Shown: in pieces, positions 3,271 to 63,317 of the stretch
How positions within the stretch are numbered: position 1 is the first letter of the stretch
Layout of the letters: every line of letters begins with the position of its first letter
NCBI GenBank assembly: GCA_963756225.1
Contig: CAVWMZ010000003.1
Span: 275,988 to 339,987 of the forward strand
Reading direction: 5' to 3'
DNA: 64,000 nucleotides
Source of the DNA: Candidatus Staskawiczbacteria bacterium
Lineage (GTDB): Bacteria; Patescibacteriota; Minisyncoccia; Minisyncoccales; Staskawiczbacteraceae
Position numbers and translations under genes: made by a program
The notes under the pieces: generated by a model
Database searches by the model: none
The model's input: the letters and a program-made list of their open reading frames with translations, nothing else
What the model was told of the DNA's origin: nothing

Positions 3271-3343
3271 GCCCTCATAGCTCAGCTGGTAGAGCAGTTG
3301 CCTCTTAAGCAATTGGTCACAGGTTCGAATCCTGTTGAGGGCA
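3271..3343 (+). tRNA. tRNA-Lys (anticodon CTT)
   Basis: Canonical cloverleaf. Acceptor GCCCTCA/TGAGGGC. D arm GCTC-AGCTGGTA-GAGC. Anticodon loop CTCTTAA. T arm ACAGG-TTCGAAT-CCTGT. Confidence 0.9.
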
Positions 3344-39159: not shown

Positions 39160-39885
39160 CTAGTTTTTAATATTTGAGTAAGTGTCGTTTACGGAGTCGT
39201 TTTCGTCTAGTGCCTCAAAAAGTCTTTGAGCCTGCTCTTTTTCTTTTTCTGAAATATTAATTTCTTCTTTTGCGATGTATTCTATAGAAGAGGATTCTAT
39301 TTTTATTCCTTTTTCTTCAAGGGTTTTTTTAATGTTTTCTAAATCTTCCGGCTTTGTATAAATATCTATATTGTTTTCATCTGAGGAAACATCATCTGCT
39401 CCAAGCTCGATTGCTAACAGCTCTAACTCTTCTTTTGTTCTACCTTCTGCAGATATTGTTATTGTCCCCTTTTTTTCAAACATCCATCTTACGGCGCCCT
39501 CTCCGGCCATCTTCCCATTATTTTGGTTTAATATAGATCTCACTTCATTTAATGTCCTGTTTTTATTGTCGGTAATGCCATTAATTATTAAAGCAATTCC
39601 TCCTGGTCCGAACCCTTCTACGGAAATTTCTTCCAATGCCTCTCCTGCTAATTCTCCGGTGCCTCTCTTAATAGCCCTTTCGATATTCTCTTTAGGCATG
39701 TCCATTTGTTTCGCTTGTTCGATGGCTGCTTTAAGCTTGGAGTTTTTGGATGAATCTCCAGAACCACCACCGTCTTTAACTGCGATCGTAATTAGTCTGC
39801 CATATTTAGAAAATACTCTTCCTCTTTTTTCGGCATTGGCCATTTTTGTGGCCATAACTGTTTTTGCGTGACTATGTCCTGACAT
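39160..39885 (-). CDS. yebC: YebC/PmpR family DNA-binding regulator
   Basis: MSGHSHAKTVMATKMANAEKRGRVFSKYGRLITIAVKDGGG… is the family signature. It lies upstream of ruvC, as in many bacteria. Confidence 0.9.
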   Translation of the reverse strand: MSGHSHAKTVMATKMANAEKRGRVFSKYGRLITIAVKDGGGSGDSSKNSKLKAAIEQAKQMDMPKENIERAIKRGTGELAGEALEEISVEGFGPGGIALIINGITDNKNRTLNEVRSILNQNNGKMAGEGAVRWMFEKKGTITISAEGRTKEELELLAIELGADDVSSDENNIDIYTKPEDLENIKKTLEEKGIKIESSSIEYIAKEEINISEKEKEQAQRLFEALDENDSVNDTYSNIKN

Positions 39886-40432
39886 GATTTTTTAAAAATT
39901 TTAATTTTATAAATAATACAATTACGGCCAAGACTATAGTTGCCGCCAAAACTGTAAAAAATAAAAACCAAGGATTTTTTATATTATTATTCTCTTGGTT
40001 TCCATCTAAACTTTGGCTGACATCTGCTAGTCCTGGAGCTGATACGTCATTTTTAGCAGAATTTTTGCTTTTTGACAAGGCTTTATTATTGTTTGTCGTT
40101 CGGACTGCAGTAATAATATTAATAGCTCCCGGAGTTAATGTTGAGCTCCACTGCCAACTAGACCCGACTTTATTATAAGACTGATTCAGCGGGGCTGACG
40201 CGAAAGTCATAGAATCAACAGCCTTCCCGTCGGGTGTTAATAAATTTAAACCATCCTTATCATTATTTAGCATTATTTTTGTGTCAGGTCTTTTAAAAAC
40301 TAAAAATCCATTCGCTAAAATATTTGTATTTTGTGGTATCGTATAGGTTGTTATTGTGCCCCGTATGTCTTGTAATTCCCATCCAAATAAATCAACATTA
40401 ACATTATTAGAATTATATAATTCAATCCATTC
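39872..40432 (-). pseudogene. 3' half of a ComEA-HhH/lamin-tail-domain (LTD) gene, separated from its 5' half by the integrative element
   Basis: From the GAATGG core the frame reads EWIELYNSNNVNVDLFGWELQD…, the LTD consensus start, then a Thr/Asn-rich region and a C-terminal TM helix. The residues upstream of the core (MARSDCRVVATTQ) are element sequence. Confidence 0.75.
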
Positions 40433-40443
40433 TTGGGTTGTCG

Positions 40444-42099
40444 CTACAACCCGACAGTCGCTCCTGGCCACTTTCTCCTCTTAGGGGTATTAGGAACTCT
40501 ATTTTCGAGCTTATCGTCAGTTTTAACCACTTTTTCTACTAAGTCCTGCAGAATCTCTCTCTTTAATTCATAAGTAGCATTTTCAAGCCCATTTTTCAAT
40601 TGTCCATAAAGCTCCTTTATAGACATCAATTGAATTGCCTTTTCATTTTCAGATGTTGCGAACCGCCCCAGCTTTGCATCCTCTTCTTGTAGTTTTTCAA
40701 TTTTATCATCACACTCTTTTATTTTTTTATCATAAAAGTTTTTGCTTACAGATTTTTCGGCATATAATTCAGCGTACCTTTCCTTTTTTTCTTCTTGGGA
40801 CGCAAACTCTTTTTTAATGGTTTCTAACCGATCAGATACATTATTACCGCCACCTTGGTTTTTACAATCTTCAATTTCTTTCAACGCTACCTCCGGTTCA
40901 AGAAAAATTTCTTTTAGCTTGTCCCACACCGGCGGCATAATTCTTGATTCACTTATAGTTGGCACACAGCACCTCCTCGCAGTCATGTATGGCCTATTTC
41001 CCACACAGAAGTAGTATTTTGTTTTTCTTTTTTCACCCTCGTCTGTTTTATATTTTCTGTTGGCGCTTTGGTATTTATAGCCATCGTAGCCGCAGACTAT
41101 TTTATGCTGGAGGGTGTAAATTTCTTTTGTATTTCTTATCGCCTGTTCTTTATTCTTTTTCAGTTGTTTTTGTCCTCTTTCAAATATTTCTTTGGAGATA
41201 ATTTTTAGAGACTTGTCCTCAACTTTAATCCAGTCTTCTTTCGGCCTTAAATTGTTTTCATTTTTTGTCCTGCCGGGATGCAAATATTTTCTGTAGTAAA
41301 ATGTTCCCGTGTAAACTTCGTTGCTCAGAATTCTGTCCACCGTTTTTCTATTCCACCAGCCTTTAGTTTCTGTTATTTTTTTTCTTCCTATTAAATCAAA
41401 CTTTGTGGGAACTTTCATGTCGTTTAATCTTTGCTGTATTTTGTATTCGCTCAATCCTTCGTCCACAAGCCATCCATACATCATTTTTACTGTTTTTATT
41501 TCATTCTTTTCAATTTCCAGTTTTTGTTTTTCTTTATTGATTTTTAGTCCATAGGGAGCGGTACCACCCAAGTATTTTCCTTCCTTCATTGCCTTCACCA
41601 TCCCTTCATTTCTTGATTCCAATCCAACCTCCCTCATCCACTCAGCGAACACGCCCGCGTTAGCGAACATAGCCCTCCCGGTAGGTGTTGAGGTGTCAAA
41701 CGGCTCTGTCACTGACTTAAACTCTATCCCGATGTCCCTGAGTTCGGCCACGGTGTTTAGTAGTAGTCGTAGGTTTCTAAAGAACCGATCCATTCTATAA
41801 ACAATTATTACATCAATCTTTTTATTCCGGGCATCTTTGAGCAATCTTTGCAGGTCCGGCCTTTTTTCTGTTCCGCCCGAGAATCCGATGTCTTTATATA
41901 GTGACCCTTCGTTTATTTCCCATCCTTCATTTTTTGCAAAGCTTTTTATTTTTTCTTCCTGCGTCTCCGGGCTGTATCCTTCCTTGCCCGCCTCATCTGA
42001 CGAGCATCTAACATAAAAAGCCGCATTCTTTGTTTTAATGGTTGTTTCTCGGCCGATGTTATAATTTTGTATTGCTGTTTTCATGTTGTTTTTCTCCAT
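40444..42099 (-). CDS. Large serine recombinase (integrase)
   Basis: 551 aa. The resolvase catalytic domain is AAFYVRCSSDEAGKEGYSPETQ…DVIIVYRMDRFFRN…. It is followed by a recombinase domain, a Cys-containing zinc-ribbon region (…KIVCGYDG…FCVGN…RRCC…) and a long coiled-coil. Confidence 0.9.
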   Translation of the reverse strand: MEKNNMKTAIQNYNIGRETTIKTKNAAFYVRCSSDEAGKEGYSPETQEEKIKSFAKNEGWEINEGSLYKDIGFSGGTEKRPDLQRLLKDARNKKIDVIIVYRMDRFFRNLRLLLNTVAELRDIGIEFKSVTEPFDTSTPTGRAMFANAGVFAEWMREVGLESRNEGMVKAMKEGKYLGGTAPYGLKINKEKQKLEIEKNEIKTVKMMYGWLVDEGLSEYKIQQRLNDMKVPTKFDLIGRKKITETKGWWNRKTVDRILSNEVYTGTFYYRKYLHPGRTKNENNLRPKEDWIKVEDKSLKIISKEIFERGQKQLKKNKEQAIRNTKEIYTLQHKIVCGYDGYKYQSANRKYKTDEGEKRKTKYYFCVGNRPYMTARRCCVPTISESRIMPPVWDKLKEIFLEPEVALKEIEDCKNQGGGNNVSDRLETIKKEFASQEEKKERYAELYAEKSVSKNFYDKKIKECDDKIEKLQEEDAKLGRFATSENEKAIQLMSIKELYGQLKNGLENATYELKREILQDLVEKVVKTDDKLENRVPNTPKRRKWPGATVGL

Positions 42100-47358: not shown

Positions 47359-47785
47359 ATATTCTGCTTAATATCAATATTTTTTTTCTTAAATATGGGG
47401 CTCTTTTTACACTCTATAATAAAATCTTCAGCATCCATTTTGTTTCAAATTTTGTGTTAATTATTTTTTTACTTAACTTAAACTTATTTATGCCTGCTTA
47501 CGTTTTCTACTTTATCCTGCTACTTTTTCGGCTAATTTTCAAGCTTCGGGGTGTTCATTTCCAAAAATTTGTTATATGATAAATCAACAATTTAATATGA
47601 GTTACGGCCTAAACCTTTGAAAGAAATTTCAGTGGCATGGTCATTTATCACATAGAGCTTAAAGATCCCATCATCAGGATCGCTCAATGCGTCATACGTG
47701 GAAACGCGTATGTGACCGCAAGGTCAAACTGGTGGTGGGCTTTTTGTTTATGCCACCAGAATCATAAAATTAACTTGTAAAATTT

Positions 47786-54927: not shown

Positions 54928-55015
54928 TTGAAATGAATTATTTATTACCTTATTTTGTCCTTTTTACGACAAAAATGCAACCTTACAAATTTATTATCAT
55001 TTGGTATAATCAATT

Positions 55016-55065
55016 TGGGGCTGGAAGTTGCAGTAGTTAAGCACAACTTAATAAACATCCAGCCC
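55016..55065 (+). ncRNA. Candidate structured RNA / leader hairpin, copy 1
   Basis: A TGGTATAAT extended -10 lies at 55001-55009. It is followed by GGGGCTGGA-AGTTGcagtagttaagcaCAACTT-aataaaca-TCCAGCCCC, a nested hairpin. The 22-nt core GGGCTGGAAGTTGCAGTAGTTA is identical to that at 62701-62722. Confidence 0.35.
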
Positions 55066-55143
55066 CGCCTATTTTTATTGACTTTTAATTAATATTATAG
55101 TATAATATTAATAAGTTTTATTTAACAAAAATTAGAAAAAATT

Positions 55144-60806: not shown

Positions 60807-61112
60807 ATGAAAACCAATATGAATAAAATTATTTTAGTTTCCGCTACATTAATTGTGGCGTTGTTTGCAGTGGTCGTCCCATTAACTACTTACGCTCAAT
60901 ATGGAGGAGGCGGTGGCGCAATGATGATACCGCCCACAGTTTCATCTATTCCCGGTGATATAACTGGCAACGGAACAGTTGATGAATATGATTTAGCAAT
61001 ATTAATGTCGCAATGGGGACAGACAGGAACTAATCTTTCTGCTGATTTAAACCATGATGGCACAGTCAACGAATATGACTTGGCTATATTAATGGCTAAT
61101 TGGGGCAAATAA
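60807..61112 (+). CDS. Small secreted dockerin-repeat protein
   Basis: Signal peptide, then two EF-hand-like repeats DITGNGTVDEYDLAILMSQWG and DLNHDGTVNEYDLAILMANWG. Confidence 0.65.
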   Translation: MKTNMNKIILVSATLIVALFAVVVPLTTYAQYGGGGGAMMIPPTVSSIPGDITGNGTVDEYDLAILMSQWGQTGTNLSADLNHDGTVNEYDLAILMANWGK

Positions 61113-61132
61113 AAATATAAATAAAAACTACT

Positions 61133-61869
61133 ATGAAAAAAATAATCTTATTAGCATTATTAACCATTGTAGGAGTATTGGGAGTAAGCCAAATGGTTTT
61201 GGCAGATACCTTCAATATTATCTACATCACCAGCAACTCTTAATAGCGCTGTTGGTACACCATTTAATGTTTCAGTTAATTTGAATCCATTCGGCAATAG
61301 TGTTTGTGTCGTAATGGGTGCTGTAAATTTTAATGGATTGGCTTGTCAAAGCATTAACGTAGCGACAAGCGGCATTATAGCTACGACACCTCCGACTTGT
61401 GCTAACCCAAGCTTTGTTATAGCTATCCCAAAATGCACAACAGCTTCTCAAGATTTGTTTTCAATGTCTATTAAAGGTAATCAAGTTGGTCAAGCATATT
61501 TGTATTTTACAGGGTTAAAGGCTGTAGGAGTTAGCGGCAATACTGCAAGTAATGTCGCGTCTGTGTGGGAAGGCGGTTCATATAACATATTGGCTACAAC
61601 AGCTCAACCAACACAACAGCCACAACACAAGTAGCGCAACCGACAATACAAACAACTCAGCCAGTCCCAACAAGGTTACTACCCCAGAGCAGCAAGCAGC
61701 ACCAGTTAATAATATTCCAACAGGCCAAGGAGCAGCAGCCGGATTGCAAGCTTCTCTTGCAACCAGATCGCCCATAAATACTACAGTGGTAATTGTTATT
61801 GTCTTGTTGTTAATTATAATAATTGGAGGAGTGTGGTTGATGATTAGCAAGAGAAAAAAGAATAAATAA
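61133..61869 (+). CDS. Membrane-anchored surface protein, possibly cohesin-like; two apparent frameshifts
   Basis: Signal peptide MKKIILLALLTIVGVLGVSQMVLA, then a beta-rich domain (…LNSAVGTPFNVSVNLNP…VMGAVNFNGL…), a Thr/Gln/Pro linker, and a C-terminal TM with KRKKNK. The cohesin assignment is tentative. Confidence 0.4.
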
Positions 61870-61961
61870 TCTCAAGATTTTTTGAAAATAAAAAGCTCTG
61901 CAATAAAATGCGGGGCTTTTTAGTTTCCAAATCATTAAAAATTGTAATATAATTAAAAAAT

Positions 61962-62681: not shown

Positions 62682-62700
62682 TTTTGGTATAATAGACTAA

Positions 62701-62746
62701 GGGCTGGAAGTTGCAGTAGTTAGTACAATTTAATAAATGCCAGCCC
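62701..62746 (+). ncRNA. Candidate structured RNA, copy 2 (orphan, with its own terminator)
   Basis: A TGGTATAAT lies at 62685-62693, then GGGCTGG-AAGTTGcagtagttagtaCAATTT-aataaatg-CCAGCCC. A terminator hairpin follows at 62750-62780. There is no downstream plus-strand gene. Confidence 0.35.
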
Positions 62747-62749
62747 AAC

Positions 62750-62780
62750 GAAAAGACCCTTACGGGCCTTTTCTGTTTTA
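62750..62780 (+). terminator. Rho-independent terminator
   Basis: GAAAAGACCC-ttac-GGGCCTTTTC followed by TGTTTT. Confidence 0.6.
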
Positions 62781-62876
62781 ATTATACCTCCGCCATAATC
62801 CTTTTACCTTTATTTCCTTCCGCCAGGTATGTAGTTACAAATATGCTAAAGCTGTTTGTTGTATTGTAGGTACGAC

Positions 62877-63317
62877 CCATTCATCGTCACTGTCGGCTCC
62901 TTCTGGATTAGGGAGAATTTCATTTATGTACACACCACTTGGGTATGTTATTGCTACTGCAGGAGCTGGGCTTTCTATCTCGGATGTTTGGTTTGTATCT
63001 ACGGTTGTTGGCGTTGGATTGGTTGTTTGGTTTGTATCCACTGTTTGTGTTGTGGTTGTCTGACAATTAACACATGCCCATCCTTGATTTATTATATCCT
63101 GCAAATACTTTCCATTACCGATGCCCTTTACCCTACTTAAATCTCCGACTGAAGAAAACGGTCTTGAGTCGATAATCTTTTGCGCTGTTTTTGGACCGAT
63201 ATGCACAATTTCGTCGAGTTGCGACAAGTTTGCAGAGTTAATGTCTATTTGTTCGGCTAAAATAAAAACCGGGCAGGAAAAAAACAATACGCAAAATAAG
63301 AATAAAACCTTTTTCAT
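62877..63317 (-). pseudogene. 5' half of the ComEA-HhH/LTD gene
   Basis: Signal peptide, then the ComEA-type helix-hairpin-helix (INSANLSQLDEIVHIGPKTAQKIIDSRPF…VKGIGNGK), a Thr-rich linker, and …VYINEILPNPEGADSDDEW at the core. Beyond the core the ORF runs 14 codons into element DNA and stops at 62835. Confidence 0.75.

Follow-up and report, generated by a model that had tools for sequence, protein, structure and literature searches.

Genomic context of the two loci

The window, by which we mean the whole 64,000-nucleotide stretch of DNA that was analysed, carries an integrative element with two copies of a short module made of a promoter box and a hairpin (Table 1). The element splits a ComEA-HhH/LTD gene, and the translations of the two parts, ...NEILPNPEGADSDDEW and EWIELYNSNN..., rejoin at the junction core CCATTC as one LTD motif (NEILPNPEGADSDDEW-IELYN). 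Its cargo comprises a PrimPol/helicase module, the LOOT RNA, a T5orf172 gene, type III restriction-modification genes and methylase remnants, followed in order by copy 1 of the module, a 7.6-kb block and copy 2. The 7.6-kb block encodes a UDP-sugar dehydrogenase-like (UDPG-DH-like) protein, GtrA, GT2 glycosyltransferases, a dockerin mini-protein, a frameshifted cohesin-like protein and PrsW. Measured from the right junction, copy 2 ends 130 bp and copy 1 lies 7.8 kb within the element. The reconstructed attP arms of the element contain a dyad, TTGTAGGTACGAC ... GTCGCTACAA.

Table 1. Features of the integrative element and of the four module copies (window coordinates, except where a contig is named).
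Feature	Position	Strand	Description
Integrative element	40427-62882		22.4 kb; carries both copies; junction core CCATTC at 40427-40432 and 62877-62882
LTD ORF	39872-40471		LTD (lamin-tail domain) by Pfam; reads ...EW-IELYNSNN...
Large serine recombinase	40444-42099	-	Pfam Resolvase, Recombinase, Zn_ribbon_recom
LOOT RNA	47606-47726	+	Rfam RF03000; 67.7 bits versus gathering threshold 46.4
Promoter, copy 1 (predicted)	54982-55010	+	CTTACA-17-TATAAT with TG upstream; extended -10 TGGTATAAT; consensus scan 10/12
Hairpin RNA, copy 1 (candidate)	55017-55066	+	Outer stem GGGGCUGGA/UCCAGCCCC; interior conserved; likely +1 is G55017
22-mer, copy 1	55018-55039	+	GGGCTGGAAGTTGCAGTAGTTA
U-rich tract	55067-55079	+	GCC UAUUUUUAUU; 3' of hairpin 1; overlaps the -35 of the next promoter
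Promoter P2 (predicted)	55078-55106	+	TTGACT-17-TATAAT; consensus scan 11/12; before the UDP-sugar dehydrogenase-like gene (ATG 55144)
Promoter, copy 2 (predicted)	62685-62693	+	Extended -10 TGGTATAAT; starts 4 nt past the PrsW stop codon (62681)
Hairpin RNA, copy 2 (candidate)	62700-62747	+	Outer stem GGGCUGG/CCAGCCC; likely +1 is A62700
22-mer, copy 2	62701-62722	+	GGGCTGGAAGTTGCAGTAGTTA
Intrinsic terminator, copy 2 (predicted)	62751-62785	+	AAAAGACCCUUACGGGCCUUUU CUGUUUU, A-tract on the other side; predicted from fold and sequence
ComEA-type ORF	62835-63317	-	HHH_3, ComEA-type HhH; ends ...NEILPNPEGADSDDEW, then 14 unrelated codons
Hairpin, G004	L035 109-155	-	73 bits with covariance model R1
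Hairpin, G088	L082 9921-9974		54 bits, E 7e-9 with covariance model R1

A dockerin mini-protein gene followed by that of a cohesin-like membrane protein was found at 60807-61870 in the window, at 16091-17508 of contig L082 and on contigs L112-L114, and compared with its counterpart in genome G088 the cohesin-like gene of the window genome has a frameshift, owing to a 1-nt difference near 61180. Other relatives keep the genes of the giant YDG/Big surface protein, the dockerin protein, the cohesin-like protein and PrsW together in a conserved chromosomal block, flanked by ychF and a pseudouridine synthase gene, with an ordinary promoter and no motif. In the context of the closest PrsW homolog (83% identity; L086 3153-6712), a DnaA-like fragment and a 792-aa PrimPol gene come next after PrsW, indicating that a mobile replication module abuts the surface-gene block in another lineage too. 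An insertion-sequence end (...AATCGGCTACTTTGACTAGTCTTGCTAGTCTAGAGCC) is present in ~28 near-identical copies in the 778-kb genome, one of them at ~4510 on the minus strand of the window, which is an unusually heavy insertion-sequence load for a CPR bacterium.

Anatomy of the two modules

A previous sequence-only reading of this DNA had described an identical 22-mer at two loci, preceded at a distance of 6-8 nt by an extended -10 element. Both observations were reproduced: the 22-mer is present on the + strand at the two loci with 0 mismatches, and TGGTATAAT (55002-55010 and 62685-62693) is placed exactly 7 nt ahead of GGGCTGG each time. Both copies are also preceded by TTTGGTATAAT. When we searched the window for a third 22-mer with up to 3 mismatches, none was found, and 100 shuffles gave 0 matches. 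The source genome (778 kb in 8 contigs, 84% complete) contains just two copies of the 22-mer, both in the window. The combined pattern TGNTATAAT-N7-GGG matches the 64-kb window at the two copies only, against an expectation of 0.02.

In copy 1, the sequence after the hairpin is GCC TATTTTTATT, and transcription may terminate intrinsically at the U-tract, which begins 3 nt past the stem. A simple terminator scan made no call at this site because the loop is longer than 8 nt. The end of copy 1 and the start codon of the dehydrogenase-like gene are 77 nt apart, in agreement with the approximately 80 nt given previously.

In copy 2, the promoter has no good -35 and is missing from the list of the two-hexamer scan. 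The predicted terminator, which the simple scan overlooked owing to one stem mismatch, starts 4 nt after the hairpin and probably also serves the convergent ComEA-fragment gene. Promoter, hairpin, terminator and convergent gene thus make copy 2 a closed unit of ~85 nt, with nothing downstream to regulate.

Distribution of the motif

In order to find homologs, a covariance model (R1) was built from copy 1, copy 2 and a copy in G004, a genome of the same genus. Searches with this model covered 26 genomes of the genus, 79 of the family and a sample of 150 of the order, and 400 genomes of the order were scanned with a pattern allowing 3 mismatches. In addition, we ran BLAST over 60 relatives, an exact pattern over GTDB representatives, the 19-mer GCTGGNAGTTGCAGTAGTT over metagenome contigs and two patterns over viral contigs. 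All searches together gave two further copies, the one in G004 and one in G088, a genome of another genus in the same family, so that four copies in three genomes are available. The three model-building sequences score 68.8-73.4 bits (copy 1, 68.8 bits; copy 2, 70.6 bits), and G088 is an independent fourth sequence. In R1, the 3' arms of copy 1 and G088 are shifted by one base, which may cost sensitivity for distant homologs, although the model did recover G088.

The exact-pattern scan of GTDB returned the G004 copy and two chance matches in coding sequence, and the nearest public record with the motif is a Candidatus Staskawiczbacteria MAG. The 36 matches of GCTGGNAGTTGCAGTAGTT in metagenome contigs were all chance matches in coding DNA, the two scans of viral contigs gave chance matches only, and BLAST against phages and plasmids gave no match. 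Five contexts of PrsW homologs (73-83% identity) and three extended ones contained the dockerin, cohesin-like and PrsW block and no motif, even with filters off, and the contexts of UDPG-DH homologs were likewise free of it. The motif is therefore found in 3 of ~600 related genomes, and in its own genus in one of the 25 other genomes searched. As judged from these comparisons, the motif is real and recurs across genera, yet it is very rare and patchy.

The G088 copy comes after an Ltp-type lipoprotein gene and a 59-aa ORF, and dockerin and cohesin-like genes with homologs in the window genome (G000) are found in its vicinity. The G004 copy is located downstream of a PEP-CTERM protein gene with its terminator, 108 nt from the end of the contig. 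No terminator was recognisable 3' of the hairpin in G004 or G088; only the 5' hairpin is conserved. When we attempted to delimit the G088 island by synteny, the left-flank protein had no counterpart in other genomes of that genus. The motif thus occurs sporadically, as a passenger of accessory DNA rich in surface genes. The PEP-CTERM sorting-signal protein directly upstream of the G004 hairpin (L035 254-1108, minus strand) has a G+C content noticeably above that of its surroundings on a 2.3-kb contig, and could represent foreign DNA or a mis-binned contig.

The two loci had been said to resemble no recognised riboswitch, and the Rfam searches agreed. At the gathering threshold, Rfam 15 identified just two tRNAs and the LOOT RNA in the whole window and no family at either hairpin. 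At E values up to 10, the two loci gave sub-threshold chance matches such as HSUR (22 bits versus 50) and Atu_C8 (22 bits versus 50). ARAGORN found only tRNA-Arg at 2708 and tRNA-Lys at 3271 and no tRNA-like structure at the hairpins. The LOOT RNA lies in the gap between the replication and defence modules of the element. Just 5' of it, at 47587-47597, is the 11-mer ACAATTTAATA, which is identical to the core of the 3' half of the hairpins in copy 2, G004 and G088; this match is probably due to chance.

Shared features of the hairpin

The hairpin had been described as an outer stem enclosing a nested inner stem, and this description holds with two small corrections. Stable folds were obtained for both copies (copy 1, -24.6 kcal/mol, z -6.2; copy 2, -14.6 kcal/mol, z -2.2). 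In copy 1, A55025 had been counted in the outer stem GGGGCTGGA and also in the inner stem AAGTTG, and the two stems can form simultaneously only as 9+5 or 8+6 pairs. Furthermore, the inner pairing proposed previously, AAGUUG/CAAYUU, is the minimum free energy pairing in the G004 homolog only, and that of copy 1, copy 2 and G088 is GUU/AAY plus AGUU/AAYU. Both inner folds are compatible with all four sequences, and the inner helix is ambiguous.

Detailed comparison of the four copies revealed several shared features. First, the 7-bp clamp GGGCUGG/CCAGCCC is invariant in all four, as are GUUGCAGUAGUU and ACAAYUUAAUA. Second, the length between the outer arms varies (34, 32, 33 and 40 nt), and all indels fall at one point, the hairpin apex, which reads AAGC, AGT, AAAC or TGTTCTTCGT. 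Third, the substitutions in the stems are A-U to G-U or G-C to G-U only, giving one-sided wobbles at 3 pairs. In the hand alignment of the four sequences, 55 of 56 cells are paired on the + strand and 50 of 56 on the - strand; these counts were made in Python from the hand alignment, since MAFFT would not place the 1-nt bulge gap internally. Finally, TGnTAT(A/T)AT stands exactly 7 nt before GGGCTGG in every copy, with a purine at the predicted +1, and the hairpin begins at the predicted +1/+2 each time. Pairwise identity is 76-88% in the hairpin, 7-11 of 11 positions in the -10 block and only 2-5 of 7 in the spacer. In the 60-nt flanks to either side it is ~50%, the background for this A+T-rich DNA. 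Taken together, the wobble-only substitutions, the fixed -10 spacing, the apical indels and the sharp boundaries point to a + strand transcript that would start at the hairpin foot, and argue against a dyad-symmetric DNA site for protein binding.

The earlier view that the repeat is an RNA module and not a protein-coding one is consistent with these data, as the homologs conserve the -10 box and the hairpin only, with apical indels and + strand wobbles. A coding repeat was also considered and rejected: the indels break every frame, there is no shared start codon, and the 38-aa minus-strand ORF of copy 1 is missing in copy 2. Of the anticipated further copies and covariation, the copies were found (two more), while two-sided compensatory changes numbered 0. 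Four sequences give no statistical power, and covariation among them neither supports nor rejects the fold.

These comparisons also bear on whether the module is a functionless relic, that is, a piece of a promoter region or terminator that was duplicated and then moved along as accessory DNA was rearranged. A relic would be compatible with the extreme rarity described above (3 of ~600 related genomes, with no copy from the scans of metagenome, viral, phage and plasmid sequences), with the constant location in accessory DNA and with the lack of the motif in the closest relatives of both flanking genes. However, a relic would not be expected to keep sharp conservation boundaries across two genera while its flanks and the 7-nt spacer diverged to background, to retain an identical 22-mer between paralogs with differing 3' halves, or to preserve pairing in 55 of 56 cells. 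We consider a relic improbable.

Relation to the glycosylation cassette

It had been proposed that copy 1 is an attenuator or riboregulator of the glycosylation cassette, and that the motif might always accompany glycosyltransferase genes. Neither proposal is supported by the sequence data. Promoter P2 is situated between hairpin 1 and the dehydrogenase-like gene, 37 nt before the ATG, and its hexamers and their spacing are identical, with a diverged spacer, before an 81%-identical dehydrogenase homolog on metagenome contig L115. In two 78%-identical UDPG-DH homologs, the upstream intergenic space is 35 nt or none, which leaves no room for a hairpin. Moreover, the downstream contexts of the four copies all differ: the UDPG-DH cassette, a terminator with a convergent gene, a giant surface protein gene 370 nt away and a contig end. 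A riboswitch or attenuator of the cassette is therefore not supported, as P2 lies downstream of the hairpin and the downstream gene class is not recurrent. Since P2 is conserved in L115, the cassette appears to have its own promoter, and the hairpin is not a regular companion of the UDPG-DH gene. Based on these predictions, we suggest that P2 is the promoter serving the sugar genes and that the hairpin is not the leader of the glycosylation cassette. The module does share with riboswitches and attenuators a compact conserved hairpin with an asymmetric internal loop that lies upstream of a gene and is followed by a U-tract, but it differs from them in having no Rfam match, no conserved class of downstream genes, an intervening promoter and one copy without a downstream gene.

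A broader cis-acting role needs to be considered here, in which the module would be a portable start whose stem-loop acts on its own transcript, by protecting the 5' end from decay or by antitermination of the put/nut-like or LoaP/RfaH type. In the ompA, ermC and aprE leaders, a 5'-terminal position of the stem-loop is needed for 5' protection, and the start of the hairpin at +1/+2 in all four copies is the position that such protection requires. The 5' hairpin is the only part that is conserved, the 3' parts being different, and its occurrence without a 3' terminator in G004 and G088 would fit a cis-acting 5' element as well. Copy 1 is at the head of the 7.6-kb cassette of glycosylation and surface genes, the gene of a 1321-aa YDG/cadherin-like surface protein starts 370 nt past the G088 copy, and dockerin and cohesin-like genes are found downstream in both the window genome and G088.

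Promoter-proximal antitermination RNAs are known from HK022 (putL and putR) and lambda (nutL and nutR), and LoaP is a NusG paralog that uses leader hairpins. The put RNAs are two-stem structures, with operons following on both sides. Like the put and nut sites and the LoaP leaders, the window contains two paralogous stem-loops on one element, each just 3' of a promoter, one of them ahead of a long operon of surface-polysaccharide type. Unlike the put RNAs, copy 2 has no operon and copy 1 is followed by a second promoter. A cis-acting module is also at odds with other observations. Copy 2 faces a terminator and a convergent gene and would have nothing to act on, and between copy 1 and the gene there are a U-tract and the stronger, conserved promoter P2. 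Simple 5' protection would not conserve the sequence of loops and bulges, and in relatives the same surface-gene block is served by an ordinary promoter and lacks the motif. Because the context of copy 2 and the presence of P2 weigh against it, we regard a cis-acting role as rather unlikely.

The modules as possible DNA sites

With the cassette (55.07-62.70 kb) between them, the two copies are direct repeats inside an element that encodes a serine recombinase. They might therefore be recombination or junction sites around an exchangeable 7.6-kb cargo cassette, in the form of a folded or dyad recombinase site or of the conserved end of stacked mobile units. The attP sites of Bxb1 and phiC31 illustrate the inverted-repeat outline of the att sites of large serine integrases. 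The perfect outer inverted repeats of 7-9 bp in a unit of ~50 bp, located on elements that encode large serine recombinases, resemble this outline; the G088 copy is 5.6 kb from another large serine recombinase, and the G004 copy is 108 nt from a contig break.

However, the junctions of the element are elsewhere. The junction core CCATTC is found at the two positions given in Table 1, the right one 130 bp beyond copy 2, and the arms are unrelated to the hairpin. A terminal repeat of the element, which would have spoken against the earlier reading, and an att site were rejected on these grounds. In contrast to the Bxb1 and phiC31 sites, the outer repeats are spaced variably (32 to 40 bp) around an asymmetric interior, which fits a dimeric DNA-binding site poorly, and they have a promoter box attached, lie away from the junctions and differ from the true att arms. 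A DNA site also leaves the conserved -10 box at a fixed distance unexplained, and it does not account for substitutions that are strand-specific wobbles. Further, the sequences after copy 1 and copy 2 are unlike each other, the recombinase near the G088 copy is a different one that gave no BLASTP match to the window recombinase at E 1e-4, and G088 has a single copy. With the true junction positions and the strand-specific pattern of conservation weighing against it, a DNA-level function appears quite improbable. A MITE or REP-like repeat was rejected as well, because the ends of the unit, which runs from TTTGRTATAAT to CCAGCCC, are not mutual inverted repeats, no flanking duplication was seen, and the genome has 2 copies.

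A more speculative variant, to which we assign only a slim chance, is that the promoter-hairpin is a junction element of CPR integrative islands that marks, and perhaps mediates, the exchange of cargo cassettes through a hairpin recognised by the recombinase or another protein of the element. Such an element could double as an outward-firing promoter, and it would then be an RNA/DNA 'chassis' part around which ultra-small episymbiotic bacteria could swap surface genes.

A candidate stand-alone small RNA

We propose, with about even confidence, that the two loci are paralogous genes for a stand-alone, lineage-restricted small non-coding RNA on accessory DNA. As judged by consensus, an own promoter and conservation confined to the promoter box and the RNA were found in four of four copies. 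According to this proposal, each copy would have an extended -10 promoter (TGnTATAAT) of its own, driving + strand transcription that starts at the purine just before GGGCUGG. The RNA would begin at the foot of a G+C clamp of 7-9 bp that closes a hairpin of ~50 nt, and the 5'-terminal position of the clamp would stabilise it. The copy 2 RNA would end at the intrinsic terminator after ~85 nt, and the copy 1 RNA probably at the U-tract past the hairpin, after ~60 nt. Its working surface would be the invariant interior, GUUGCAGUAGUU and ACAAYUUAAUA, displayed in loops and bulges for the binding of a protein or of a target RNA through a short seed. The gene would travel with the accessory or mobile DNA of one CPR family (Staskawiczbacteria-like). 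We infer the transcription, the end points and the action in trans of this small RNA from the DNA sequence.

When we searched the whole genome with RNAduplex for an extended antisense target of the 22-mer, none was convincing; apart from self matches, the best duplex was located ~870 nt into a gene. The complement of a 9-mer seed was found 8 times in the genome against ~6 expected, and two of the eight are the hairpin loci themselves. With no antisense target and seed complements at chance level, a protein partner and a short-seed target are equally possible.

Lambda OOP and P4 CI RNA are stand-alone small RNAs of mobile islands and prophages. For the sibling small RNAs OmrA/OmrB, PrrF1/2 and LhrC, seeds and targets are defined, and conservation within their genera is broad. 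Salmonella Genomic Island 1 is described as encoding an sRNA of its own (PMC9299015). The candidate described here resembles the small RNAs of mobile islands and prophages in being a short non-coding unit with its own predicted promoter, a stable hairpin and, in copy 2, a terminator, placed in intergenic DNA between modules of an integrative element. It differs from the Salmonella Genomic Island 1 sRNA, OOP and CI RNA in having no similarity of sequence or structure to them, no antisense partner that we could find and two sibling copies on one element, and in being a candidate from sequence. Like OmrA/OmrB, PrrF1/2 and LhrC, the hairpin paralogs share an identical 5' part while their 3' parts and terminators have diverged; unlike them, the hairpin motif occurs in just one of the 25 other genomes searched in the genus. 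The LOOT RNA is likewise an orphan non-coding RNA gene in an inter-module gap of the same element, as the hairpin is a candidate to be, but it is an unrelated 121-nt structure of an already curated family.

Biological significance

The best reading of the motif is that it would be an uncatalogued and very narrowly distributed example of a well-known type, namely small RNA units on mobile DNA that run from promoter to terminator. It is a well-delimited and very rare candidate, present in three genomes and without covariation support, and is therefore a lead rather than a discovery. The finding that the glycosylation cassette is not under a novel riboswitch is in itself a useful negative result. 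To our knowledge, very few regulatory RNAs are known in CPR bacteria (Patescibacteria), and none has been found on their integrative elements. If transcribed, the module would provide a compact and experimentally tractable sRNA. The accessory DNA that carries the motif encodes surface functions, namely glycosylation, dockerin and cohesin-like proteins and giant adhesin-like proteins, and cell-surface functions are thought to matter for the episymbiotic lifestyle of CPR bacteria.
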